Source: Armatimonadota bacterium
Lineage (GTDB): Bacteria > Armatimonadota > SYMT01
Length of the DNA stretch: 30,194 nt
Reading direction: 5' to 3'
NCBI GenBank assembly: GCA_046292385.1
Contig: JBKBRF010000067.1
Span: 1 to 30,194, forward strand
Both the position numbers and the translations under genes were made by a program. Within the stretch, counting starts at the first letter, position 1; each line of letters begins with the position of its first letter. This document shows, piece after piece, positions 2,467-19,602 of this stretch. Under the pieces are notes generated by a model, which was not told the DNA's origin, did not search any database, and saw only the letters and a list, made by a program, of their open reading frames with translations.

Positions 2467-2991
2467 TTAGTTGGCGCCGGCCTGGTAGCTCACCAGGTCG
2501 ATGCCCGTGTTCAGATCGATGCTTACGTCGGTGGCGTCCCACTCCACCGGCGGCCGAGCGTTCTCGATCTGGAGATGACGCTCCATGGCGGACGCCAGGA
2601 ACTGGCGCTCCGACGGCGCCGGTGCCCGCTCTTCGCCCAGGTGCGGCAGCAGGAACGCCCCCAGGACCCCGGCGGCCACCGCGGCGGCGGTCATCATCGC
2701 CGGAGCGCGCAGGCGCCAGTCGAACTGCAGCCGGAAGCGCTGCCACCAGGCGACCGGCGCGGGGGCGGGCGTCGTCTCCCGGATGGCCGCCATGAGCCGC
2801 TCGTCGAACGAGTCGCTCAAGGTGCGTTGCGGCAGGCCGCGCAGGAGGCTGACAAGCTGTCGGGCGTCCGCCAGGGCGCGATCGCAGCCGGAGCACTCGG
2901 AGACGTGCTGCTCCACCAGCGCTCGCTCGGAGGGCGAGAGCGTGCCGTCCACATATTTCTGGATCAGTCGCTCAATTCTTCCGCACTTCAT
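2467..2991 (-). CDS. Anti-sigma factor with zf-HC2 (ZAS) domain and one TM helix
   Basis: MKCGRIERLIQKYVDG...HVSECSGC (Hx3Cx2C); TM AAAAVAAGVLGAFLL. Start 2991 overlaps the sigma stop (TAATG); the ORF-track start 3288 is too far upstream. Confidence 0.85.
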   Translation of the reverse strand: MKCGRIERLIQKYVDGTLSPSERALVEQHVSECSGCDRALADARQLVSLLRGLPQRTLSDSFDERLMAAIRETTPAPAPVAWWQRFRLQFDWRLRAPAMMTAAAVAAGVLGAFLLPHLGEERAPAPSERQFLASAMERHLQIENARPPVEWDATDVSIDLNTGIDLVSYQAGAN

Positions 2992-3566
2992 TACTTCATC
3001 TCCATAAAGTGCTGGAGCTTGCGTCGCAGCAGCGCTCGGGCGTTGAAGAGTCTCGACTTCACCGTCCCGACAGGACAACCAAGGGTTTCTGCCACTTCCT
3101 CGTAGGAGAGTCCTTCCATGTCGTGCAGAACCACCACGGCCCGCAGCTTGGGCGGCAGGGAGTGGATCGATCTCTGCACCTGGCTCTGCAGCTCGCCGAG
3201 CTGCGTCCGCGCCTGCGGATCTCCCTCGCGGCTCGTGGCGGGCAGCTCGCGGACCTTTTCCTCGGTCTCGCCTTCTACCGGCACCCACTGCGGCGCGCGG
3301 CGCTCTCGCCGGAAGCGGTCGATCACCAGATTCGTGGCAATCCGGTACAGCCAGGTATCCACGGCCGCGTCGTGACGGAACGCCCGCATCGACTGGTAGG
3401 CGCGGATGAAGACCTCTTGCGTGAGATCCTCCGCGTCCGGACTGTCGTTGGTCAGCCGGCAGATATAGCTGTAGATCCGGTTCTTGTGCTCCTGAACCAG
3501 ACCATCGAAGCTACGCTGCACGCCGACTGACACGCTGTTGATTGCCACGGCAGAGACGCCCGCCAT
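2991..3566 (-). CDS. ECF sigma factor (RpoE/SigW-like)
   Basis: DAEDLTQEVFIRAY, TWLYRIATN (region 2) and LSYEEVAETLGCPVGTVKSRLFNAR (region 4). Confidence 0.92.
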   Translation of the reverse strand: MAGVSAVAINSVSVGVQRSFDGLVQEHKNRIYSYICRLTNDSPDAEDLTQEVFIRAYQSMRAFRHDAAVDTWLYRIATNLVIDRFRRERRAPQWVPVEGETEEKVRELPATSREGDPQARTQLGELQSQVQRSIHSLPPKLRAVVVLHDMEGLSYEEVAETLGCPVGTVKSRLFNARALLRRKLQHFMEMK

Positions 3567-4587: not shown

Positions 4588-5364
4588 ATGTGGACCGCGG
4601 GAGTGATCGTCGCCCTGGTCCTCAGCGCCGCCATCGGGCTGTCGCTAGGCCTGGTCGGCGGCGGCGGCTCCATCATCACGGTGCCCATCCTGGTCTACGT
4701 GGCGGGTCTGCCGGTGCCGCGGGCGGTAGCGCTCTCGCTGGCGATCGTGGGCGCGACTTCGGCGGTCGGAGCCGTACTTCAGGCGCGGGAAGGGCAGGTG
4801 CATCTCAAGGCGGCGGCGGTCTTCGCGGTGACCGGGATGGTGGGGGCGCTCGGCGGAGCCAGGCTGACGCCGCTGGTGCCGGCCCCGTTGTTGATGGGGC
4901 TCTTTGCCCTGCTGATGATCGCCGTGGGGCTCCGCATGGTCCGAGGCCAGGACGAGGCGGAGATGCCCGCGCGCGCTGAGTGCCGCCTCTGGAAGTGCGG
5001 GCTCGCCGGCCTCGGCCTGGGAGTGCTGACCGGGTTCCTCGGCGTCGGCGGAGGGTTCCTGATCGTTCCCGCGCTGCTCCGGTTCGCGAAGCTTTCCATG
5101 CGCCAGGCGGTGGCCACGTCACTGCTCATCATCGCGGCCAACAGCGCGTCCGGCTTCCTGGTCCACCTGGGTGAGCTCCAGGGCACGCTCGCGCTGGGGG
5201 CAGCGTTCATCGCGGTGGCGATCGCCGGAATGTTGGGGGGGCTCGCCCTGGCGCGGCGGACGCGCCCCGCCGGACTGAAGGTCGCGTTCGGCCGGCTGTC
5301 GCTGGCGGTCGCCGCCTTCCTGCTGGTGATGAACGCGGGACCGCTCTGGCGCTTGCTGACGTAA
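4588..5364 (+). CDS. Sulfite exporter TauE/SafE family protein
   Basis: Two GLVGGGGS / GFLGVGGG repeats, about 8 TM helices, AVATSL. Confidence 0.88.
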   Translation: MWTAGVIVALVLSAAIGLSLGLVGGGGSIITVPILVYVAGLPVPRAVALSLAIVGATSAVGAVLQAREGQVHLKAAAVFAVTGMVGALGGARLTPLVPAPLLMGLFALLMIAVGLRMVRGQDEAEMPARAECRLWKCGLAGLGLGVLTGFLGVGGGFLIVPALLRFAKLSMRQAVATSLLIIAANSASGFLVHLGELQGTLALGAAFIAVAIAGMLGGLALARRTRPAGLKVAFGRLSLAVAAFLLVMNAGPLWRLLT

Positions 5365-5400: not shown

Positions 5401-5479
5401 CATGAAACCGGGGCGAATGACACCCCCCGGAGCGCAGCCGCCACTGGGGGAATCTCACGCTCCTGGAGAGGAAGACAAG

Positions 5480-6889
5480 ATGTTCGTCGGGCGTTTCTTT
5501 GTGGAGGGACTGGCCCACGCCTCCTACCTGTTCGGGCGGGACGGCGAGGCAGCCGTCGTGGATCCCAAGCGGGACGTGGAGGACTACCTCGCGACCGCAG
5601 CCGGGCGGGGGGTGAAGATCGTGGCGATCTTCGAGACCCATCCGCATGCAGACTTCGTCTCCGGTCACCTGGAGCTGGCGGAGCGGACCGGAGCGCCGAT
5701 TTACGTCTCCGAGAGCTACCCGGCCCAGTTCCCTCATCAGGCACTGCGGCACGAGGAGCAGGTCACGATCGGCGGGATGCCGGTAACCGCCCTGCACACG
5801 CCGGGACATTCGCCGGACTCGATGTCGTTCTACGCGGAGGACGGAGAGGAGCGGGTCGTCTTCAGCGGCGATATCCTCTTCGTCGGCGACGTGGGGAGGC
5901 CGGACCTGCGGGATATGCACAGCGATCCGCGAGCGATGGCGGAGGCGCTCTACGACACCCTGCACCAGGTCTTCTGGAAGCTGCCGGAAGACACCGTGGT
6001 CTACCCGGCGCACGGAGCGGGCTCCCTGTGCGGGCGGCGGCTGGGCTCCGCGCCGAGCTCGACGATCGGCGCCGAGAAGCGGTGGAACTGGGTGAACCAG
6101 CTCCGAACCCGGGAAGCGTTCGTGGAGGCGATGCTGTCCAATCTGCCCGACCGGCCGATCTTCTTCCGCCGGAGCCCCTTCGCGAACCTGGCGGGAGCAC
6201 TTCCCCTGGCGGAAGTGCCGAAGCCGGAGCGGCTGGAGCCGCAGGCGCTGCGCGAACGGTATCCCGAGGCGCTGATCCTCGACACCCGCGGCGTGGAGGC
6301 CTACGGAGCGGGGCACCTGGCGGGCAGCCTGAACGTGGGGCTGCAGCTTCCGGTCTTCTCCACCTGGGTAGGGACCTTCGTCGAGCCGCACCAGCCGCTG
6401 GTGCTGGTGGTCGAAGAGCCGGAGGAGGCGGAGAAGGCCTGGCTGGAGCTGGCCCGGATCGGCTACGAACGGGCCGTCGCCTATCTCGTCGCCGACGCGG
6501 CGGCCTGGAGGGCGGCGGGCCTGGAAGTGCGGGAGACGCCGCAGCTGGAGGTGTGCTGCGTAGACCAGTGGCTGCAGGAAGGCAGGAAGCTGCTGGACGC
6601 CCGGACCCCCGGTGAGTGGAACGCGGGCGCGGTGAGCGGAGCGGCCTGGATCCCGCTCTCCAGGCTGCCGGAGCGCCTGGAGGAGGTGCCCGAGGGGCCA
6701 CTGGCAGTCATGTGCGGCAGCGGCTACCGCTCCTCCAGCGGAGCCAGCCTGCTGGAGCGGGCGGGGCGTGCGGACGTGGTGAACGTCCGGGGCGGCTGGT
6801 CCGCCTACAGCCAGCGGCAGTGCGCGGAGCCGGATAGCCGGGACCTGTTCTGTCAGGAGCTGTTCGACCGGATGCCGGTGGCGGCGTGA
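5480..6889 (+). CDS. MBL-fold persulfide dioxygenase fused to two rhodanese domains (CstB-like)
   Basis: LAHASY, ETHPHADFVSGH, HTPGHS, GDVGRPDL, PAHGAGSLCG; C-terminal rhodanese loop CGSGYRS. Start 5480 follows GGAGAGGA; the ATG at 5402 abuts the -10 motif and is unlikely to be used. Confidence 0.88.
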   Translation: MFVGRFFVEGLAHASYLFGRDGEAAVVDPKRDVEDYLATAAGRGVKIVAIFETHPHADFVSGHLELAERTGAPIYVSESYPAQFPHQALRHEEQVTIGGMPVTALHTPGHSPDSMSFYAEDGEERVVFSGDILFVGDVGRPDLRDMHSDPRAMAEALYDTLHQVFWKLPEDTVVYPAHGAGSLCGRRLGSAPSSTIGAEKRWNWVNQLRTREAFVEAMLSNLPDRPIFFRRSPFANLAGALPLAEVPKPERLEPQALRERYPEALILDTRGVEAYGAGHLAGSLNVGLQLPVFSTWVGTFVEPHQPLVLVVEEPEEAEKAWLELARIGYERAVAYLVADAAAWRAAGLEVRETPQLEVCCVDQWLQEGRKLLDARTPGEWNAGAVSGAAWIPLSRLPERLEEVPEGPLAVMCGSGYRSSSGASLLERAGRADVVNVRGGWSAYSQRQCAEPDSRDLFCQELFDRMPVAA

Positions 6890-7089: not shown

Positions 7090-7827
7090 GTGACACGTCA
7101 CAGGATGATCGGACCGAGCCTCGCCCTGGCTGTTCTCGCTCTCGCGGCGAGCCCCGGGGCGGCGGCACCCATGGCACACGGCGGAGCCGCCTGTCCCATG
7201 CGCGGGATGCCCTCGGGCGCTATGCAGGCAGGCATGGGCCAGCCCGGGATGATGCGTCGAGGCATGGGCATGATGCCGGGAATGCGGAGGCAGCAGATGC
7301 GGCTCCGCGGGATGCAGCCCGGCGGCATGGGTGGGATGCAGCACCGGATGATGGGCCACGGGATGATGGGCGGTAGTCACGCCAGGGGCGGGATGCAGCC
7401 CGGCATGAGCGGCAACATGGCCGACATGCAGCAGATCCACACGCTCCTCGCAAACCACGACGCCATCCAGCGGACGGTGCGGCTTCTTCCGAACGGGGTT
7501 GAAACCGTCACCACGTCACCCGATCCGCGGCTTGCCGCGCTGCTGCCACAGCACGTGGAGGCGATGTACGCCCGCCTGAAGGAGGGCCGGCTGATCCGCG
7601 GCTTCGACCCGCTGTTCGTGGAGCTGTTCCGGCACGCAGGGAAGATCGATCTGAAGCTGGAGAAGGTGCCGTCGGGGGTGCGGGTGGTCGAGACCTCGAC
7701 GGACCCCTACGCCGTCCGGCTCATCCAGGCTCACGCCCAGGCGGTCGACGGCTTCGTGCAGGACGGCATGGGCGCGATGCACCGCACCCATCCGGTACCG
7801 GCGCCACCCGCTTCCGAGCACCATTAA
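7090..7827 (+). CDS. Exported Met/Gly-rich protein with a globular His-containing C-terminal domain, function unknown
   Basis: Signal peptide, CPM motif, ~80-aa M/G-rich tract, then DMQQIHTLLANHDAIQRTVRLLPNGVETVTTS...IQAHAQAV. Start is 7090 (GTG) or 7105 (ATG). Confidence 0.7.
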   Translation: MTRHRMIGPSLALAVLALAASPGAAAPMAHGGAACPMRGMPSGAMQAGMGQPGMMRRGMGMMPGMRRQQMRLRGMQPGGMGGMQHRMMGHGMMGGSHARGGMQPGMSGNMADMQQIHTLLANHDAIQRTVRLLPNGVETVTTSPDPRLAALLPQHVEAMYARLKEGRLIRGFDPLFVELFRHAGKIDLKLEKVPSGVRVVETSTDPYAVRLIQAHAQAVDGFVQDGMGAMHRTHPVPAPPASEHH

Positions 7828-7889: not shown

Positions 7890-7984
7890 GGTCGCTCTCC
7901 CAATTCCTTTCCAGCGTGACTTCGTCCATCAGACCCTACCACGCCGACCTGAGGCCGCCTCGACCCAAGGAGGGATCTGCCCGC

Positions 7985-9583
7985 ATGTGGCATCGAAAAG
8001 GCATCTTCGTCCTGGCTGCTGCTGCAGCCGCCGCTCTGGCCTCGCTGGCCGTCTCTGCCGCGCAGGCCTCGAAGGCTCGCAGCGTCTCGCTGGTCTACTT
8101 TGCCGATCTGCACGCGCAGTTGGAACCCCACCCGGAACTGTTCTGGCACGACGGCCGGGAAGAGATCGCCTCCGCGGGAGGCGTGTCGCGGATCGCCGCG
8201 GCGGTGGAGGAGATCCGCCGGGAGCGCCCGGGACAGGTCCTCTTCATGGATGCGGGCGACACGATTCAGGGCGCGGGGCCTGCGGCCTGGACGGAAGGCA
8301 AGGCGGTGGTGTCACCCCTCAACGCGCTGGGACTTGACCTCGGCGTTCCGGGCAACTGGGAGGTGGTCTACGGCACCCCTGCCCTGCGGGCCCGCGCCCG
8401 GGAGCTGAAGCATCCGCTGGTGGCGGCGAACGTCTACGACGCGGCGACCGGAGCCCGGCTTTTCGCTCCCTATCTGATGCGGGAGGTAAATGGAGTCCGC
8501 ATCGCCGTGATCGGCTACACCGATCCCGACGTGCCCCTGCGGCAGCCGCCGACCTACAGTGCGGGGCTGCGGTATACCGGCGCCGAAGAGCTTCCGCCCC
8601 TCATCCGGGAAGTGCGCGCAGAGCAGCAGGCCGACCTGGTGGTGCTGCTCACTCACATCGGTCTGGCCAAGGCGGTACGCCTGGCGGAGAAGGTGCCGGG
8701 GGTGGACGTGCTCCTCTCCAGCGACACGCACGAGCGGACCTACGAGCCGATCGTGCGGGGGAACACCTGGATCGTCGAGCCGGGGAGCTTCGGCTCCTTC
8801 CTCGGCCGGCTCGACGTCACCGTCCGGGACGGCGAGGTAGTTAACCGCCAGTGGGAGCTGATCGAGCTCCGCGCCGACCGGTTCCCCGAGGAGCCCCGGG
8901 TCCAGCGGCTGGTGGAGCAGGCGCTCCGGCCGCACCGGGAGCGGCTGGACCGCGTGGTGGGAGAGACCCGGGCGCCGCTGCTGCGGTACGCCGTGGCGGA
9001 GACGGCGCTCGACGCCGTGCTCGCGGACGCGCTCCGCGAAGCAGCCGGCACGGAGATCGCGCTCTCCAACGGCTTCCGCTTCGCGGCGCCGATCCCCGCC
9101 GGCCCGATCCGGGAAGCGGACCTCTGGAACGCCTACCCGGTGGTGACGCGCGTCAAGACCGCCGAGGTGACCGGCAAGCAGCTCCGCGAGTTCTGGGAGA
9201 AGGAGCTGGAGAACGTCTTCTCGGCCGATCCGGAGAAGCTCTTCGGCGGCTGGCTGCCGAGGCCGTCCGGAATGACGCTGCGCTTCCGGGCGCGAGCGCC
9301 GTTCGGACAGCGGGTCCGGGAGATCCGCGTCCACGGGAAGCCACTCGAGGAGGACCGGCTCTATACCGTGGCCGCCTGCGAGCGCGAGGGCGACACGGAG
9401 GATATGCTCTGCCGCATCAAGGGCTGCCACCTACCACAAGTGCTCTCCTTCGATGCCCACGAAGCGGTACGCCGCTACCTGACGCGGCACTCACCGCTCG
9501 CCGCGCCGGCTCCGCGCCGCGTGGTGGCGGAGGATCTGCCGCCGGTGCTGCGCTCGCAGGTGCTCGCGGAAGCGCAGCCCTGA
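7985..9583 (+). CDS. Exported metallophosphoesterase/5'-nucleotidase family protein, SoxB-like (paralog 1)
   Basis: Signal peptide; DLHAQL, DAGDT, PGNWE, THIG, SSDTHE; 5'-nucleotidase C-domain with SNGFRF and FWEKELENVFS.DP...GGW, resembling SoxB. Start 7985 follows AAGGAGG. Confidence 0.8.
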   Translation: MWHRKGIFVLAAAAAAALASLAVSAAQASKARSVSLVYFADLHAQLEPHPELFWHDGREEIASAGGVSRIAAAVEEIRRERPGQVLFMDAGDTIQGAGPAAWTEGKAVVSPLNALGLDLGVPGNWEVVYGTPALRARARELKHPLVAANVYDAATGARLFAPYLMREVNGVRIAVIGYTDPDVPLRQPPTYSAGLRYTGAEELPPLIREVRAEQQADLVVLLTHIGLAKAVRLAEKVPGVDVLLSSDTHERTYEPIVRGNTWIVEPGSFGSFLGRLDVTVRDGEVVNRQWELIELRADRFPEEPRVQRLVEQALRPHRERLDRVVGETRAPLLRYAVAETALDAVLADALREAAGTEIALSNGFRFAAPIPAGPIREADLWNAYPVVTRVKTAEVTGKQLREFWEKELENVFSADPEKLFGGWLPRPSGMTLRFRARAPFGQRVREIRVHGKPLEEDRLYTVAACEREGDTEDMLCRIKGCHLPQVLSFDAHEAVRRYLTRHSPLAAPAPRRVVAEDLPPVLRSQVLAEAQP

Positions 9584-9607
9584 ATCCTTTCCGCCGCTCG
9601 CCGTATC
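9582..9607 (+). promoter_or_regulatory. ECF-type promoter motif copy 4
   Basis: gaatcc tttccgccgctcgc cgtatc, overlapping the stop of the upstream gene. Confidence 0.8.
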
Positions 9608-9652
9608 AATCCGGAGGAGGCGAGCCGGCTCGCTCGCCCGGGAGGAGCTGGA

Positions 9653-10087
9653 ATGGATCGACGAGGATCGCTGCTGGCGCTCGTCACCGGCGCCGCGGCG
9701 CTGCTGACGGGGCGCCGCGCCACTGCCGAGGGAAGGAACCACCGGGCGGTGTTCGACCTGACGGCGGACAGCCCTGACCAGTGGGACGCCGCGCTGCGGA
9801 ACGTGGAGAACCTCCGCCGCGCTTTCGGTACCGAGCAGGTGGAGGCGCAGCTAGTGGTCCACGGCAAGACCTATCCGCTGCTGCAGCAGACCAACACCGC
9901 CATGGAAGCGCGGCTGAGGGAGCTGCAGCAGGGCGGGGTGCGGCTCTCCCTCTGCCGGAACACGATGAAGCGGTTCCAGGTCTCCCCGGAGAGCCTGTTC
10001 CCGTTCGCCGACACGGTCGACTCGGCGGTGGCGGAGCTGGTCCGCCAGCAGGAAGCCGGCTTCGCGTACCTGAAGGTCGGCGGCTGA
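9653..10087 (+). CDS. DsrE family protein with Tat-like signal
   Basis: MDRRGSLLAL; HRAVFD, ALRNVEN, LVVHG, LCRNTM, SAVAELVRQQEAGFAYLK. Confidence 0.85.
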   Translation: MDRRGSLLALVTGAAALLTGRRATAEGRNHRAVFDLTADSPDQWDAALRNVENLRRAFGTEQVEAQLVVHGKTYPLLQQTNTAMEARLRELQQGGVRLSLCRNTMKRFQVSPESLFPFADTVDSAVAELVRQQEAGFAYLKVGG

Positions 10088-10128
10088 TGCCGGCCCGGGT
10101 GGCGAGGAGATTAGGAAGGAGCTTACGG

Positions 10129-10305
10129 ATGCCGGACTACGTCCTGCCGCTGCTGCTGGTGGCGGCCTATGTGATCCTGATGCGCTGGATCCTGCCCAGC
10201 TTCGGAGTGCCCACCTGAATGGCGAGCACCTGCCGCGTCGAGTCTCGACGCGACCAGCCGGAAGCCCCGATGGAACCGGAGCCCCCGAGCCGTCCCCGCC
10301 CGTAG
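10129..10305 (+). CDS. Candidate 58-aa single-TM selenoprotein (UGA at 10216-10218 read as Sec; U-x4-C)
   Basis: AGGAAGGAG RBS; MPDYVLPLLLVAAYVILMRWILPSFGVPT-UGA-MASTCRVESRRDQPEAPMEPEPPSRPRP-TAG; SECIS-like hairpin downstream of the UGA. If the UGA is a stop, the product is 29 aa (10129-10218). Confidence 0.65.
10234..10252 (+). promoter_or_regulatory. Putative bacterial SECIS element
   Basis: Perfect 8-bp stem CGCGTCGA/TCGACGCG with a GTC loop (G first); 23 nt lie between the UGA and the loop. Confidence 0.6.
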
Positions 10306-10363
10306 GGGACTGTTGAACCTGTAACACCGCGGGCGCAGCCCGCTTGATCATAGAGGAAGACTG

Positions 10364-10855
10364 ATGCGACAACTAGAGAACTGGAAGGTAGCGGTGGCCG
10401 CCGGGCTGCTGGCGTTGGGAGGTCTCGGCGCCGGACGACTACTCGCCGGCGACCGACTGGAAGCGAGCTCCGCGGGTGCTCCCGCCGCGACACAGGCTAC
10501 AAAAGAGAGCTCGATCCGTTGGAGCGCAAGCTATGCCGCGGCGCAGGCGGAGGCGCGGAAGACCGGACGGCCCGTGCTGGTGGAGTTCTACGCGGACTGG
10601 TGCCCGCCATGCCACCTGATGGAGCGGACCACCTTCCGGGACCGGCAGGTGGTGGAGACGACCCGGAAACTGGTGCCGGTGCGGGTCGACGTCGACGCGA
10701 ATGAGAAGCTGGCGGGCCAGTACGGCGTGAGCAGCATCCCCCAGGCGTTCGTCGTCGCTCCCTCCGGCAAGATCCTGGCACGGGCCGAGGGGTACCAGGA
10801 TGCGAAGCAGTTCACCGCCTTCCTCCATGACGGGCTGAAGAAGGGGGGCCGCTGA
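10364..10855 (+). CDS. Exported or membrane-anchored thioredoxin-fold protein (SoxW-like)
   Basis: N-terminal hydrophobic segment; VEFYADWCPPCHLM; cis-Pro motif SSIP. Confidence 0.85.
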   Translation: MRQLENWKVAVAAGLLALGGLGAGRLLAGDRLEASSAGAPAATQATKESSIRWSASYAAAQAEARKTGRPVLVEFYADWCPPCHLMERTTFRDRQVVETTRKLVPVRVDVDANEKLAGQYGVSSIPQAFVVAPSGKILARAEGYQDAKQFTAFLHDGLKKGGR

Positions 10856-12489
10856 TGCGGTTCGCCGAATCCTTACGGACGCTCCCCGCCGCCGGCCTCG
10901 CCCTGCTCGCCACCGCGGGAAGTGTCGCAGCGGTTCACGGTGCGGTCTCGACGGAGCCGCGGGAGCAGCCGCGTGACCGCACCGTCACGGTGCTCCACAT
11001 GTCGGACACGCACGCCGCCCTCGACGTGCATCCGGAGGTCTTCTTCGACGCGAAAGACCAGCCGACGCTCCGCCGGGCGGGCGGTTTTGCGCTCCTTGCC
11101 GCCGCGGTCCAGGCGGAGCGGCAGGCCCGCCCCGGCCGGACGATGCTGGTCAACGTGGGCGATACGATCCATGGCTCCGCAGTCGCGGAGTGGACGCAGG
11201 GAAAGGCGATCGTCCCGATCGTGAACCGGCTGGGGATCGACGTCTTCGTGCCCGGCAACTGGGAGTATGCCTACGGGCCGGAGACGTTCCGAAAGCGGAT
11301 GGCGGAGCTGAACCATCCGGTCGCCGCCATCAATCTCCACGACGCGCAGACGGGCCAGCGGCTCTACGCGCCGTCGGTGGTGAAAGAGATCGACGGAGTG
11401 CGGATCGGCGTGGTCGGGATCACCTCCGTGATCGTCGACAAGAGCATGGCGCCGGACTACTCGCGGGGGCTGAAGTTCACCTTCAAGGAAGGTGTCCAGG
11501 CGGAGGTGGACCGGCTCCGGCGCGAAGGGGTAGAGGTCGTCCTGCTGGCGACGGAGCTCGGCCTGGCGCAGGAGACTCGGCTGGCGCGGGAAATCCGGAA
11601 CGTCGACTTCATCCTGGGCGGCCACACGCACGAGCGGACGGAGCGACCGATCACCGACGGGGGAATCCCGGTGGTCCAGTCCGGCTCCGAGGGCTCCTTC
11701 CTGACGCGCCTCACCTTCCGCGTGCGGGACGGCAAGGTCGCCGGCTACGAGCATCAGCTGCTGGAGGTGACGCCGGAGCGGTACCGCCCCGATCCGGAAG
11801 TGCAGCGGCTGGTCGAGGCGGCGCAGGCCCCCTTTGCCGGCAAGTTGAAGCAGGTGGTCGGTCACACGGAGACCCACCTTTACCGCAAGGGCGTCCTGGA
11901 GAGCTCGATGGACAACCTGATCGCGGACGCGGTGCGCGAGGCGACGGGGGCCGACATCGGCATGACCAACGGCTTCCGGTTCTCCTACCCGGTTCCGGCC
12001 GGGCCGATCACGGAGGAGGACCTGCTGAACATCTTCCCCATGCACGCACCGGTAAAGGTGGGGACCATGACCGGCAGGCAGCTTCGGGAGTTCTGGGAGG
12101 AGAGCCTGGAGCAGGTCTTCGCCAGCGACGCCTATGGTCAGCGCGGCGGCTGGGGACCCCGGCCCAGCGGGATGGAGGTGCGGGTCCGGATCGGCGCCCC
12201 GCAAGGCCAGCGCGTAGTCTGGATGAAGGTGAACGGCAGGCCGGTGCGGGAGGACGACCGGTTCACGGTCGCTACCTGCGACCGACCCGGGGACCCGAAG
12301 GAGATGCTCTGCCGTTACCACGGCGCCGCGGAAACTCAGGTGCTGGAGATGGGCATCCACGACGCCATGCGTCAGTACCTGCGGCGGCACCGGACCATCT
12401 CGCCGCGGGTGGAGGGGCGGATCTCCGCGGAGGATGCGAGCGGGACCGTCTTCAGCCAGTACGAGCTGCAGAAGGCGGCGAAGCCGTAA
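10855..12489 (+). CDS. Exported metallophosphoesterase/5'-nucleotidase family protein, SoxB-like (paralog 2)
   Basis: SDTHA, NVGDT, PGNWE, TELG, GGHTHE, TNGFRF, FWEESLEQVF...GGW; TGATG-coupled to the thioredoxin gene. Confidence 0.8.
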   Translation: MRFAESLRTLPAAGLALLATAGSVAAVHGAVSTEPREQPRDRTVTVLHMSDTHAALDVHPEVFFDAKDQPTLRRAGGFALLAAAVQAERQARPGRTMLVNVGDTIHGSAVAEWTQGKAIVPIVNRLGIDVFVPGNWEYAYGPETFRKRMAELNHPVAAINLHDAQTGQRLYAPSVVKEIDGVRIGVVGITSVIVDKSMAPDYSRGLKFTFKEGVQAEVDRLRREGVEVVLLATELGLAQETRLAREIRNVDFILGGHTHERTERPITDGGIPVVQSGSEGSFLTRLTFRVRDGKVAGYEHQLLEVTPERYRPDPEVQRLVEAAQAPFAGKLKQVVGHTETHLYRKGVLESSMDNLIADAVREATGADIGMTNGFRFSYPVPAGPITEEDLLNIFPMHAPVKVGTMTGRQLREFWEESLEQVFASDAYGQRGGWGPRPSGMEVRVRIGAPQGQRVVWMKVNGRPVREDDRFTVATCDRPGDPKEMLCRYHGAAETQVLEMGIHDAMRQYLRRHRTISPRVEGRISAEDASGTVFSQYELQKAAKP

Positions 12490-12533: not shown

Positions 12534-12644
12534 CAGTAAGGGAGACGCCGCAGATCTCCCAGCAAACGGCCGGAGCCTCCGAGCCGGCCGAAACCAGAAG
12601 CTTCCGGAACGACGGGGCCGCAGCAGCGGCCCCGCTTTTTCTTT
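12534..12644 (+). ncRNA. Candidate ~110-nt small RNA
   Basis: Lies between motif copy 5 and a U-tailed terminator; hairpins GGGAGA/TCTCCC (12540-12560) and CGGCCGG/CCGGCCG (12567-12590). The 5' end is estimated. Confidence 0.5.
12613..12644 (+). terminator. Intrinsic terminator
   Basis: CGGGGCCGC-AGCA-GCGGCCCCG followed by CTTTTTCTTT. Confidence 0.8.
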
Positions 12645-13239
12645 ACGTGTCCTGCAGGAAGTAGGCGTTGAGCCGCTCCCGGAGCCGGGTGCGGGCGCGA
12701 TGGAGACGGGCCTTGACCGCGGCCACGGTGAGTCCCGTCCTCTCGGCCGTCTCTGCCGTGGAGAGCTGCTCGATGTCACGCAGGCGGAGCACGGTCTGGT
12801 CCGGCTCCGGTAGCTCCGCCACCGCCGCGCGGATCTTGCGCTTCATCTCCGCCTGGATGGCGCTCTGCTCCGGGGTGGGAGTCGGGGCCGGCGGGGTCCG
12901 CTCCGGCCGTCCTTCTTCCTGGTGCATCCGCTCTTCCAGCGACTCCGTCGGAACTTCCGCCTTTTCCCGCCGCCGGAAACAGAGGTTGGTGGCGATGCGA
13001 CCGAGCCACGTGACGAACGAGGAGCGTCCCTCGAACTGGGAGAGCCGCTCGTATGCCCGGACGAATGCCTCGGAAGCGACCTCTTCGGCGTCATCCGGGT
13101 GGTGGCAGGCCCGGACCATCAGACGGTACAGGTACTCCTGATACTGGTCGACCAGCCGGTCGAACGCCGCCGCGTCCCCCGCCTGAGCGGCCTGGATCAG
13201 CTCCATCTCTCCGGGATTACGGGTCGGTGGCTGTTTCAC
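12643..13239 (-). CDS. ECF sigma factor, orphan (no adjacent anti-sigma)
   Basis: AQAGDAAAFDRLV, DAEEVASEAF, FEGRSSFVTWLGRIATN, LSTAETAERTGLTVAAVKARLHRAR. Start is 13239 (GTG) or 13206 (ATG). Confidence 0.9.
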   Translation of the reverse strand: MKQPPTRNPGEMELIQAAQAGDAAAFDRLVDQYQEYLYRLMVRACHHPDDAEEVASEAFVRAYERLSQFEGRSSFVTWLGRIATNLCFRRREKAEVPTESLEERMHQEEGRPERTPPAPTPTPEQSAIQAEMKRKIRAAVAELPEPDQTVLRLRDIEQLSTAETAERTGLTVAAVKARLHRARTRLRERLNAYFLQDT

Positions 13240-13448
13240 GTGGGCGACCCCGCTGTTCTCGCGTCCCGACGCCGCGCAAGAGCCCGGCTCATCGTCACCG
13301 AGCCTCGTCAGTCGCGGTGGGAGTAGTACTCGACTCAAGCTTACTTACGCTTCACCTTCGACGACATGAGGTCCGCACAGAGCGCCGCCGGAGGCGAGGG
13401 ATGCGCATGGCGGGTTTCAAACGGAGCGTCGTCTCGGGGTTGGACCAG

Positions 13449-17224: not shown

Positions 17225-17296
17225 AGCCGGCGAGAGGAATCGAACCCCCAACCAACGGTTTACAAAACCGTCGCTCTACCATTGAGCTACGCCGGC
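17225..17296 (-). tRNA. tRNA-Thr(TGT)
   Basis: GCCGGCG acceptor, ACGGT-TTTGTAA-ACCGT, GGTTCGATTCC. Confidence 0.96.
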
Positions 17297-17339
17297 CGAC
17301 ACCCTGCGGGACCGCCTGCCCGAGCCCGGCTCCGGCCGC

Positions 17340-17975
17340 CTAGTCTTGCCCGCGGCTCAGATGGCTCCAGATCTTCCGCCGCGCCCGCTGCAGCGCGTTG
17401 TCCACGCACTTGGGTCGGCAGTGCAGCTCCTGGGCTACCTGCTCGTAGGTCTTCCCCTCCAGGCGACCGCGAATGGCGTGGTTCTCCAGCTCGCTCAGCT
17501 CCGAGGACGCGTGACGGGCGAGATACTCCTCCAGACGGGCGTCCAGGTCGGAGCGGTCGTCGTCGAAACGGACCTCTACGCAGAGCTCGCGGGGGAGGCA
17601 CTGCTCCTCGCCGGCGGGGCGCTCAATGGGGACGTACCGGTTCAGCGGAAGGTGCTTGCGCCGCGAGGCGGTTTTCACCGCGGAGATGATCTGGCGGGTG
17701 ACGCAGACTTCCGCGAACGAGCGGAACCGGACGAGGCGCCCGGCCTGGAAGTCCCGGATCGCCTTGTACAGGCCGATCATGCCTTCCTGGACCACGTCCT
17801 CGTGCTCCGCCCCGCTCAGGAAGTAGCTCCGCGCTTTGCCTTCCACGAGGTACCGGTAGCGCCCGAGAAGGATCTCGGTTGCCGCGCGGCTTCCCCGCTG
17901 AGCCAGCGCGATCGCTTCCTCATCGGTGAGACAGGACAGCCGGTACGGGGCCGACTGGTGCACTCCTACGATCAT
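17340..17975 (-). CDS. sigH: RNA polymerase sigma factor SigH (Spo0H-type)
   Basis: KARSYFLSGAEHEDVVQEGMIGLYKAIRDF, FRSFAEVCVTRQIISAVKTASRRKHLPLN, VDNALQR; GGAGG RBS; upstream of rpmG as in Bacillota. Confidence 0.9.
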   Translation of the reverse strand: MIVGVHQSAPYRLSCLTDEEAIALAQRGSRAATEILLGRYRYLVEGKARSYFLSGAEHEDVVQEGMIGLYKAIRDFQAGRLVRFRSFAEVCVTRQIISAVKTASRRKHLPLNRYVPIERPAGEEQCLPRELCVEVRFDDDRSDLDARLEEYLARHASSELSELENHAIRGRLEGKTYEQVAQELHCRPKCVDNALQRARRKIWSHLSRGQD

Positions 17976-18044
17976 CGCGACGCCTCCGCAGACGTCCCTG
18001 ACCGCTATTCGCTTTTCAACGCGCCCGTGAACGGGACGACCGTC

Positions 18045-18073
18045 ATTATAGGAACAGCGGTAGAACCTGTCAA
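18045..18073 (-). promoter_or_regulatory. Consensus sigma70/sigmaA promoter for sigH
   Basis: TTGACA-N17-TATAAT on the minus strand. Confidence 0.85.
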
Positions 18074-18216
18074 GCGCGCCGGCAGCGTCCGAGTCACGAC
18101 GTTGAAGGATGAGGGGATGAGGGCACGAGTGACGGCCGGCCCCCTTAACTACCCACCTCTTAACGCCCTTTAAGCGTGCAATCAGCCGGAGTGCGTTCTC
18201 TCTCCTCACTGGCCGG

Positions 18217-19602
18217 CTACTCGCCCCGGAACACCCGCTCCCAGGCGCGCGCGATGCGGAGCACCGTCTCCTCTTCCCAGGCCCGCCCGGCGATCTGCAG
18301 GCCCACCGGCATCCCCTCCGCGGCACCGCAGGGGACACTCACCGCCGGGGTGCCGGTCATGTTGAAGACGAACGTGTTCCGCACCATATAGAACTGCGCG
18401 GGGGCCACCCCGTCGTGCACGGCAACGTACTCCTGGTCGAGCCGGGGCGCGGGAATCGGCACGGCGGGCGTGAGCAGCGCGTCGACCTCCTGGAAGACGC
18501 GGGAGAAGTCGTCCCGCAGGAGCTGGCGCGCCTGGAGCGCGTTCAGGTAGTCGGCCGCCTCCACGCAGAGCCCTTCCGCCAGGCGCATCCGCACGCGGCT
18601 GCCGTAGTCGCCGGAGCGGGTCGCCAGCCACTCCCGGTGGTAGGCAGCCGCCTCCGCCAGAATGAGGCAGCCCTGGACCGTCGCCGCGTAGTCGAGCGAG
18701 GGGAGCGAGACCTCGCGGATCTCCGCGCCTTCCCGCCGCAGCAGCTCGATCGCCTCGCGCACCCGGAGCTCCACCTCGGAGTGGCACCAGCTCCAGAAGA
18801 GCTCGCGCGGTATGCCCACGCGCAGGCCGCGCACGCCGCCCTCCAGCCGCGCCGCGTAGGGCGGGACCGGCCGCGTGGAGGAGGTCGGGTCGGCCGGGTC
18901 GTGGCCGGCCAGCGCCTCCAGCAGGAGCGCGGCGTCGGTGACGGTGCGCGCCATCGGGCCGAGGTGGTCGAGCGACCACGCCAGCGGCACCGCGCCGTGG
19001 CGGGAGACGCGGCCGTAGGTCGGCTTCAGGCCGACGATGCCGCAGAGCGCAGCGGGGCAGCGGATGGAGCCGCCGGTGTCGGAGCCGACCGAGCCGTAGC
19101 AGAGCCCGGCCGCCACCGCCGCGCCGGAGCCGCTGCTGGAGCCGCCGGTGCCGCGGGCGGGGTCGTGCGGGTTGCGGACCGGTCCGTAGTGCGGGTTGTC
19201 CGAGGTGGCGCCGAAGGCAAACTCGTACATGTTGAGCTTACCGAGGGAGACCGCTCCCGCGTTCCGGAGCCGGCGGACGACGGTGGCATCCGCGTCCGGG
19301 ACCCAGTCGCGCAGCAGCGCGGAGCCGGCGGTGGTGCGGATGCCGGCGGTCTGCAGCAGGTCCTTCAGGCCGAGCGGGACGCCGTGCAGCGGGCCGCGCC
19401 AGCGGCCGTCGGCCAGCTCCCGGTCGCGCTCCGCCGCCTCCGCCCGCGCCTCGTCGGCGCAGAGGGTCCGGAAGCTGTTGAGCAGCTCGTCTCGCTCCGC
19501 GATGCGCTGGAGGCAGGCTTCCGTCGCCTCTATCGAGGTGACGCGGCGGGCGCGCAGCTCCCGGGAAAGCTCCGCCAGGGAGAGATCGGCGAGCCCGCTC
19601 AT
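18217..19602 (-). CDS. Amidase signature family protein (GatA/AtzE-like)
   Basis: GPLHGVPLGLKD, GGSSSGS, GSDTGGSIRCPA, GLKPTYGRVS. Confidence 0.9.
   Translation of the reverse strand: MSGLADLSLAELSRELRARRVTSIEATEACLQRIAERDELLNSFRTLCADEARAEAAERDRELADGRWRGPLHGVPLGLKDLLQTAGIRTTAGSALLRDWVPDADATVVRRLRNAGAVSLGKLNMYEFAFGATSDNPHYGPVRNPHDPARGTGGSSSGSGAAVAAGLCYGSVGSDTGGSIRCPAALCGIVGLKPTYGRVSRHGAVPLAWSLDHLGPMARTVTDAALLLEALAGHDPADPTSSTRPVPPYAARLEGGVRGLRVGIPRELFWSWCHSEVELRVREAIELLRREGAEIREVSLPSLDYAATVQGCLILAEAAAYHREWLATRSGDYGSRVRMRLAEGLCVEAADYLNALQARQLLRDDFSRVFQEVDALLTPAVPIPAPRLDQEYVAVHDGVAPAQFYMVRNTFVFNMTGTPAVSVPCGAAEGMPVGLQIAGRAWEEETVLRIARAWERVFRGE

Follow-up and report, generated by a model that had tools for sequence, protein, structure and literature searches.

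Does the TGA at codon 30 of a very short gene end its translation, or is it read as selenocysteine (Sec, U)? The question is raised by positions 10129–10305 (+) of a 30,194-nt stretch of an Armatimonadota genome (contig JBKBRF010000067.1 of assembly GCA_046292385.1), the whole of which is called here the window. A Shine-Dalgarno-like sequence, AGGAAGGAG (10113–10121, +), lies 7 nt upstream of the ATG at 10129 and opens a frame whose first part has 29 codons (MPDY...GVPT), with a short, acidic N-terminus and a hydrophobic stretch that closes with ILPSFGVPT. The in-frame TGA at 10216–10218 follows as residue 30, and another 28 open codons (MASTC...RPRP) lead from there to a TAG at 10303–10305, giving 58 codons and a stop. 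A preliminary description of the window had pointed out the strong ribosome binding site, the 29-codon hydrophobic open reading frame (ORF) ending GVPT-UGA, the 28 codons that begin MASTC, a perfect 8-bp stem with a G-first loop at 10234–10252, 23 nt after the UGA, and the position between genes for DsrE and a thioredoxin, and all of these were found where it had placed them. Its central proposal, a 58-residue protein with a single transmembrane (TM) segment and Sec in U-M-A-S-T-C, is supported by the conservation of the family, by a selenocysteine insertion sequence (SECIS) and by the Sec machinery of the genome. On these grounds we consider it very probable that 10129–10305 is a real gene whose UGA at codon 30 is decoded as Sec.

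When 41 related genomes were searched in six frames, eight matches came out at E ≤ 7.5e-8, the window's own included, and all eight contain exactly one in-frame TGA. Their read-through peptides share the invariant residues W20, L22, P23, G26, V27, T29, U30, E38 and R40. A profile of these eight peptides matched 58 times in 55 of 401 genomes from the phylum, and the in-frame TGA is present in 57 of the 58; the sole other match, in genome G094, has TGT, coding for Cys, at the aligned column. The search was extended to one genome per GTDB species with a DNA pattern (W.LP..G[VI].T, followed by TGA or TGY and then [ML]) that is neutral between TGA and TGY. This gave at least 120 loci; among the matches listed there are 110 with TGA and 10 with TGY, all 120 with a full micro-protein. 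Carriers for which we have titles (80 titles) include Planctomycetota, Acidobacteriota, several deltaproteobacterial groups, Haliangiales, Verrucomicrobiota, Obscuribacterales, Gemmatimonadetes, Leptospirales and Fibrobacteraceae, as well as Ca. Kuenenia stuttgartiensis and relatives of Syntrophobacter, Desulfomonile and Thermogutta. Among the matches listed, Sec occurs in roughly nine of ten members and in at least ten differently named lineages, and the eight Cys forms with titles are all of Planctomycetota type.

The 50 loci found by hidden Markov model (HMM) and the 120 found by the DNA pattern form a set of 170 loci, all of which match the profile. The conserved P and G are present in all 170 and the T in 168, while the column of residue 30 contains TGA in 159 and TGY in 11 (U 159, C 11), and there is a Cys at +5 in 140. 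Conservation extends from −14 to +5 around the Sec column, and the same motif is seen in the 50 HMM-found loci. In the window it corresponds to L-P-x-x-G-V-P-T-U-M-x-x-x-C, codons 22–35 (10192–10233), ending in the TGC of Cys35 (10231–10233), the putative resolving partner of Sec according to its codon conservation and the U-x4-C spacing. This spacing occurs in 129 of the 159 Sec forms (a further 14 have the Cys at six residues), and the equivalent C-x4-C in 10 of the 11 Cys forms. In a gapless DNA alignment of 127 sequences, TG is invariant in the second Cys codon and its third base is either C or T. The frame is likewise kept open: a stop within 12 codons past the UGA was found in 1 of 144 loci in frame, while the two remaining frames gave 43 and 54, and within 16 codons the figures were 4 in frame versus 51 and 72 out of frame. 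As a separate observation, three loci (L081, L166 and L192, one of them titled Haliangiales) have a variant, ...T-U-MAPPRRS..., without Cys at +5; some 19–20 residues on, they have a Cys followed immediately by a second in-frame TGA, which could be either a second Sec or the true stop.

Homologues are also present among called proteins. A word-indexed search of the protein database returned no candidate homologue; with an exhaustive profile search there were 807 proteins at E ≤ 1e-3, of which 44 reached E ≤ 1e-10, in clusters named only 'hypothetical protein'. Most of the 46 proteins retrieved are full-length Cys forms (GVPTCMSGAC...) in one continuous frame, several are 29-residue products ending GVPT or longer calls that stop there, and some show W or G at the Sec column. 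We read these W and G residues as probably reflecting TGA translated under another code by the gene caller, and the 29-residue products would be those expected of a selenoprotein truncated by gene callers. Truncation or omission by gene callers had been foreseen in the preliminary description, which also suggested looking for homologues with Cys at the UGA column and for conservation beyond it; the products ending in GVPT, the 11 Cys loci and many database proteins, and the Cys kept five residues on bear this out. Homologues that end in TAA or TAG at this column, which would have spoken against the proposal, were not found.

Decoding of UGA as Sec by SelB calls for a bacterial SECIS (bSECIS) shortly after the codon. 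According to the constraints given in PMC13188914, its loop has 3–9 nt with a G among its first two nucleotides, its stem 4–16 bp, the distance from UGA to loop is 16–37 nt and the minimum free energy is ≤ −7.5 kcal/mol. The window has a hairpin within these published limits, as had been anticipated, at 10234–10252 (+): a perfectly paired stem of 8 bp (10234–10241 with 10245–10252) that starts 15 nt past the UGA, a GUC loop (10242–10244) that starts 23 nt past it, and a folding energy of −13.2 kcal/mol. Under a strict perfect-stem test the same constraints are satisfied by 119 of 157 Sec forms versus 1 of 11 Cys forms. In a search for strict perfect stems in the 48 nt after the Sec or Cys codon, the best hairpin had a median of −10.5 kcal/mol in the 157 Sec forms, with stems of at least 6 bp in 81%, and of −6.4 kcal/mol in the 11 Cys forms, where it occupied other positions. 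In the Sec forms the loop starts mostly 16–24 nt after the UGA (mode 23), and the commonest loops are GUC (25), GGA (23), GGUC (18) and GGC (11). When each sequence was compared with synonymous recodings that preserve its peptide, 74 of the 157 Sec forms fell within the best 5% and 33 within the best 1%, against 1 and 0 of the 11 Cys forms.

RNAalifold found no consensus structure in the gapless 127-sequence alignment, because clades set the stem in registers one codon apart. Covariation was therefore counted for two explicit registers, that of the window and a second one, using an alignment built on the reading frame, with no fitting to structure. Paired cells amounted to 53.4% and 62.8% in the two registers, versus 40.2% and 54.3% in shuffles, and covariation scores to 0.311 and 0.341, versus 0.154 and 0.216; in both registers none of 500 shuffles reached the observed values and all slid controls were lower. 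The peptide encoded by the stem differs widely by clade (VESR, VGSR, VEPR, TGSR, LPAAG) with pairing retained, and the 'VE.R' motif is absent from the Cys forms, so that conservation in the stem region is mostly at the RNA level. Across the family, the comparisons place the hairpin far above chance.

The genome of the window (7.04 Mb in 91 contigs, 98% complete) contains the whole set of Sec genes that the preliminary description had suggested looking for. Both selA and selB are present, tRNA-Sec (selC) scores 66.6 bits and is called tRNA-SeC with anticodon tca by ARAGORN, and selD carries one in-frame TGA; the selD product itself is predicted from its sequence to be a selenoprotein. At G000:C11:87438-89894 (L001, L002, L011), selA, a TGA-containing selD, tRNA-SeC and tRNA-Ala are clustered on one strand. 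Within the window, the tRNA-Sec model gave a weak match at 17225–17297 (−), with 38.8 bits versus a gathering score of 47, which is probably an ordinary tRNA gene. Over the phylum, a SelA match was found in 52 of the 54 genomes with the TGA form, the remaining two being 63% and 72% complete, and in 175 of the 346 genomes lacking the micro-gene. The genome with the Cys form (G094, 88% complete) has no SelA match. Its locus (L061; G094:C465, 1304–1453, −), the sole Cys form among the 58 matches in the phylum, still has a hairpin of 9 bp following the Cys codon; it resembles a Sec codon changed recently to Cys, perhaps once the Sec trait had been lost.

Relatives close to the window were compared over 9600–10900 using contigs from three DNA runs and one RNA-library run. 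The RNA-library contig, ca. 91% identical, spans 9600–10898 with 111 differences, its presence in an RNA library not showing transcription; a DNA-run contig of 988 bases differs from the window at 43 positions. Among the differences listed, those in the micro-gene are at 10153 (Leu to Val), at 10170 (synonymous) and at seven positions within 10263–10291, in the tail, and there are none in 10171–10262, the part that takes in the motif with its UGA and Cys codon as well as the hairpin. This clustering of differences in the tail, leaving the stretch from motif to hairpin intact, is suggestive only.

What kind of protein would result? A single membrane helix is predicted at codons 5–24 (10141–10200, +) from residue composition and from an AlphaFold2 model built on an 80-sequence alignment, in which helix 5–24 is followed by coil (mean pLDDT, the predicted local distance difference test, 75) and the tail has lower pLDDT. 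This tail (10253–10302, +) is hydrophilic, rich in Pro, Glu and Arg, and has no conserved alignment columns. The basic flank of a membrane helix generally stays in the cytoplasm, according to the positive-inside rule. Over the 170 loci, the flank N-terminal to the helix has on average 0.15 Lys plus Arg and 0.82 Asp plus Glu, and the 15 residues after U have 2.4 Lys plus Arg; 156 of the 170 have their more basic flank on the C-terminal side, and there are two extra basic positions at −11 and −6. Since the C-terminal flank is basic, the topology would be N-out/C-in, which would place the Sec/Cys pair at the cytoplasmic face of the membrane. In the ESM Atlas, a natural Cys homologue matched a single cluster, unnamed and from Planctomycetota, with a score of 0.86, which is no more than a lead.

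The micro-gene is surrounded by genes on the same strand, several of them related to sulfur. Upstream are a TauE/SafE sulfite-exporter family gene (4588–5364, +; PF01925, E 1.5e-41), a persulfide-dioxygenase-like fusion of metallo-beta-lactamase and rhodanese (5402–6889, +; PF00753, PF00581), an ORF for a Met-rich protein of 245 residues (7090–7827, +), a SoxB-like metallophosphoesterase/5'-nucleotidase-C protein (7916–9583, +; TIGR04486 with 297 bits, cut-off 550; PF02872) and a DsrE-like protein (9653–10087, +; PF02635, E 1.2e-6) whose gene has a TGA stop. Downstream are a thioredoxin-like protein with an N-terminal hydrophobic segment (10364–10855, +; PF13899, PF00085) and a second SoxB-like protein (10855–12489, +; TIGR04486 with 303 bits, under cut-off; PF00149, PF02872). 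Two SoxB-like paralogues therefore flank the trio of DsrE-like gene, micro-gene and thioredoxin-like gene. The best NCBIfam matches of the thioredoxin-like protein are the TsoB and DsbD C-terminal domains, under their cut-offs. Met, Gly and His are highly abundant in the first half of the Met-rich protein (GMxxGM runs), whose N-terminus resembles a signal peptide by eye; the protein had no Pfam or NCBIfam match.

Neighbours were compared over the 170 loci by scanning the nearest same-strand ORFs within 250 nt against Pfam (E ≤ 1e-6), which covered 123 upstream and 118 downstream ORFs, 40 of the loci having just 300-nt flanks. These scans replaced a single-linkage clustering of neighbour ORFs, which was discarded because rhodanese domains in common and antisense frames had linked pieces with no relation to each other. 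Upstream we found zf-HC2 anti-sigma proteins (8/123), DUF302 (7/123), thioredoxins or redoxins (6/123), ArsR-type helix-turn-helix proteins (5/123), Pyr_redox_2 (4/123, one with rhodanese), DUF442 (1/123) and one each of a metallo-beta-lactamase–rhodanese fusion, YeeE, OsmC and MsrA. Downstream there were DUF302 (6/118), thioredoxins or redoxins (6/118), YgaP-like TM domains (5/118, one fused to rhodanese), TauE (2/118), Pyr_redox_2 (1/118, CoA-disulfide-reductase-like) and DUF442 (1/118). The remaining adjacent ORFs are mostly unrelated. DUF302 genes, whose function is unknown, are seen inside sox clusters of sulfur oxidisers, according to PMC5037610. The recurring theme of these neighbours, as far as family assignments indicate, is the handling of thiols and reactive sulfur and its regulation, with no obligate partner.

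From this context and from the chemistry of a Sec/Cys pair, we consider it possible, though somewhat short of probable, that the micro-protein acts at the inner face of the membrane as a relay or sensor in the redox chemistry of reactive sulfur or thiols. Very probably, SelB and tRNA-Sec recode the UGA at codon 30, guided by the in-frame bSECIS that starts directly after the Cys35 codon. The product would have a tiny acidic N-terminus facing outwards, a helix at ca. 5–24, a basic interfacial segment leading to GVPT-U-M-x-x-x-C, and a disordered tail. The selenol/thiol pair could alternate between its reduced state and either a selenenylsulfide or an Se-S(n) adduct. Tethered to the membrane, the protein would accept, relay or sense sulfane sulfur or thiol oxidants, and re-reduction might be due to thioredoxin or to a CoA-disulfide-reductase-like flavoprotein, beside sulfur-anion transporters and persulfide enzymes. 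Two observations weigh against this functional assignment. One or more of the listed thiol, sulfur and regulator families is adjacent in 43 of the 170 loci, which leaves 127 without any of them and the family without a universal neighbour. Besides, the N-terminal segments of the DsrE-like and thioredoxin-like neighbours in the window look like export signals by eye; since the U/C pair is expected on the cytoplasmic side, these two proteins may not be direct partners of the micro-protein. The persulfide carrier or redox sensor envisaged in the preliminary description is thus compatible with the gene neighbourhoods, and the part played in it by the two adjacent genes is what becomes questionable.

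Two other functions of a selenoprotein deserve attention, both of which we regard as unlikely. A selenolate/thiolate pair at a membrane face is a good ligand for soft metals, and the protein could use it to bind such a metal or a metalloid (Hg, Cu, Cd, As or Se itself), as a membrane chaperone or an accessory of uptake or efflux. The Met/His/Gly-rich protein encoded two genes upstream (7090–7827), the five ArsR-family regulators found upstream and the single cation-efflux and ZnuA genes would fit such a role, and MerT-type and other metal-handling selenoproteins appear in Table 1 of PMC13188914. Nevertheless, the MerT, MerF, MerE and HMA models matched neither the window protein (E ≤ 1) nor 18 Cys forms (E ≤ 10), the flavoprotein neighbours are best matched by the CoA-disulfide reductase model (463–472 bits, cut-off 579) and reach 100–115 bits with that of MerA, and it is sulfur and thiol enzymes, not metal pumps, that recur beside the gene.

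Comparably improbable, in our view, is a protein that carries no sulfur and serves mainly as a redox sensor or transducer, in which oxidation of the U/C pair would modulate a neighbouring extracytoplasmic function (ECF) sigma factor/ZAS anti-sigma system or an ArsR-type repressor. The zf-HC2 and ArsR-type genes counted above agree with this idea, as do an ECF sigma gene at 12643–13338 (−) in the window and the locus L120, with sigma-70 region 4/ECF domains in the ORF just upstream of its anti-sigma gene. Against it, most loci lack an adjacent regulator and the zf-HC2 cases are restricted to Planctomycetota-type loci, mostly Cys forms. In these (L082, L083, L085, L098, L120, L141, L154 and L156) the micro-gene comes directly after the anti-sigma gene, of ca. 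80–100 residues, and L082 and L085 have a cytochrome-bd-subunit-I-like gene downstream. Besides its ECF sigma gene, the window has an ORF resembling a zf-HC2 anti-sigma (2467–3288, −) and a further one of the sigma-70 family (17340–18338, −), so that several sigma and anti-sigma genes surround its sulfur cluster.

Much less probable than any of these functions is that the UGA is a true stop, which would leave a 29-residue hydrophobic micropeptide and make the hairpin a regulatory or stability element of an operon mRNA instead of a SECIS. Gene callers do output such 29-residue products (P0088, P0099, P0102 and others), the downstream 'VE.R' conservation, missing in Cys forms, largely mirrors the RNA stem, and the tail is unconserved. 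These facts are outweighed by the continuous Cys ORFs with the same T-C-M-S-x-x-C, by a second Cys conserved at the codon level five codons past the UGA, by a frame kept free of stops through the hairpin, by the SECIS geometry and G-first loops of that hairpin, lacking in Cys forms, and by the association of TGA forms with SelA. In addition, there is no terminator-like site in 9500–11000, on which ground an intrinsic terminator was rejected too. Other ways of dispensing with Sec were rejected as well: an alternative genetic code, in view of the ordinary TGA stop of the DsrE-like gene just upstream, and stop-start coupling at TGAATG, in view of the conservation of the Met after the Sec column within continuous Cys forms.

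Several points nevertheless weigh against decoding as Sec and temper our confidence in it. Selenium incorporation and translation past the UGA are predicted here from sequence. W, L, P, G, T and TGH are set by the DNA pattern, which biases these columns in 120 of the 170 loci, and kin genomes are not independent, so that the counts, given with no test statistic, overstate the support. Past ca. residue 42 the tail is unconserved, and the median open length is 27 codons versus 28 in frame +1. The strict perfect-stem test was failed by 38 of the 157 Sec forms; the window's fold is by itself unexceptional (z = −1.4 versus dinucleotide shuffles) and is equalled by 27% of synonymous recodings of its peptide, so that the case for a SECIS rests on the family. 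Finally, both structures examined for covariation derive from member sequences, which favours them over their slid versions. The idea of a decaying remnant, a Cys gene made functionless here by a TGY to TGA mutation, can practically be dismissed: a single base change would suffice, but in 159 of 170 loci, from many phyla, the aligned codon is TGA, followed by a co-varying hairpin, and close relatives have, among the differences listed, none in 10171–10262 while the tail diverges.

Decoding of the UGA as Sec thus remains the preferred reading, and with it comes a family that appears to be absent from the catalogues consulted. The window protein had no match in NCBIfam (E ≤ 10) or Pfam (E ≤ 1), and 18 Cys forms gave chance-level matches only (E ≥ 0.03; Pfam searched at E ≤ 10), none over a cut-off. 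Table 1 of PMC13188914 (May 2026) lists 119 prokaryotic selenoprotein families or subfamilies, nearly all with model accessions; there is no single-helix U-x4-C protein among them, and scans with the models matched none. Nothing similar is described in the accessible portions of deep-Sep (PMC12013277) and of a preprint (10.1101/2022.07.06.499078), and a full-text literature search found no paper on such a protein, although supplements, which lie outside such a search, could hold an unnamed 'hypothetical' equivalent.

Inventories of selenoproteins draw on known domains and on Cys/Sec pairs among called proteins, and a 58-codon gene escapes both routes because callers end it at codon 29. The gene occurs in 54 of the 401 genomes from a single phylum, and over many phyla in at least 120 loci, so that the use of selenium by soil, sediment and anaerobic bacteria has probably been undercounted, and annotation pipelines could regain thousands of truncated or missing genes by means of a small profile and a SECIS check. 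The near-exclusive use of Sec in a codon-neutral scan (110 TGA to 10 TGY among the matches listed) argues for a chemically demanding role, and membrane-anchored selenol chemistry beside persulfide, sulfite and thiosulfate genes would offer a testable handle on how bacteria deal with reactive sulfur at the membrane. We tentatively propose, with less assurance than for the relay or sensor role as such, that this may be one of the most widespread unrecognised families of bacterial selenoproteins, an architectural prokaryotic counterpart of selenoproteins K and S, acting at the cytoplasmic face as an acceptor, relay or sensor of sulfane sulfur (persulfide, polysulfide, thiosulfate) that would link sulfur-anion transporters and persulfide enzymes to reductants of the thioredoxin or CoA-disulfide-reductase type.

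How does the micro-protein compare with known systems? SELENOK and SELENOS are small single-pass membrane selenoproteins of eukaryotes, with a disordered, charged, Pro-rich cytosolic tail that bears the Sec. The likeness is one of architecture only, an N-terminal helix and a disordered tail; Sec is near the C-terminus in SELENOK and SELENOS, whereas in the micro-protein it is 6 residues past the helix, with a Cys 5 residues on and the SECIS inside the ORF. As for homology with them, no Pfam family of any kind matched the micro-protein. The YgaP-like TM domain (PF11127, formerly DUF2892) is also a small membrane protein with a Cys near a hydrophobic ...W.L..LG...C end, but it has two helices rather than one, and homology was not supported, with no Pfam match and an hhalign probability of 2% over 14 columns.

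TsoA (LULAXC motif, NF045695) and TsoB (rhodanese/DsbD fusion, NF045694), both in Table 1 of PMC13188914, likewise have a Sec separated from a Cys (or a second Sec) by 3–4 residues, in a context of sulfur transfer. The micro-protein did not match either model at E ≤ 10; the C-terminal part of TsoB is the best model for the thioredoxin-like neighbour in the window (60.8 bits, cut-off 805). Canonical bacterial selenoproteins usually have UxxC or CxxU, as against the U-x4-C found here outside a thioredoxin fold. The family thus appears to be uncatalogued though very widespread, and its decoding mechanism would be an ordinary one: with canonical SelB/bSECIS genes it shares the in-frame UGA, the hairpin with a G-first 3-nt loop, the Cys homologues and the presence of selA, selB, selC and selD.

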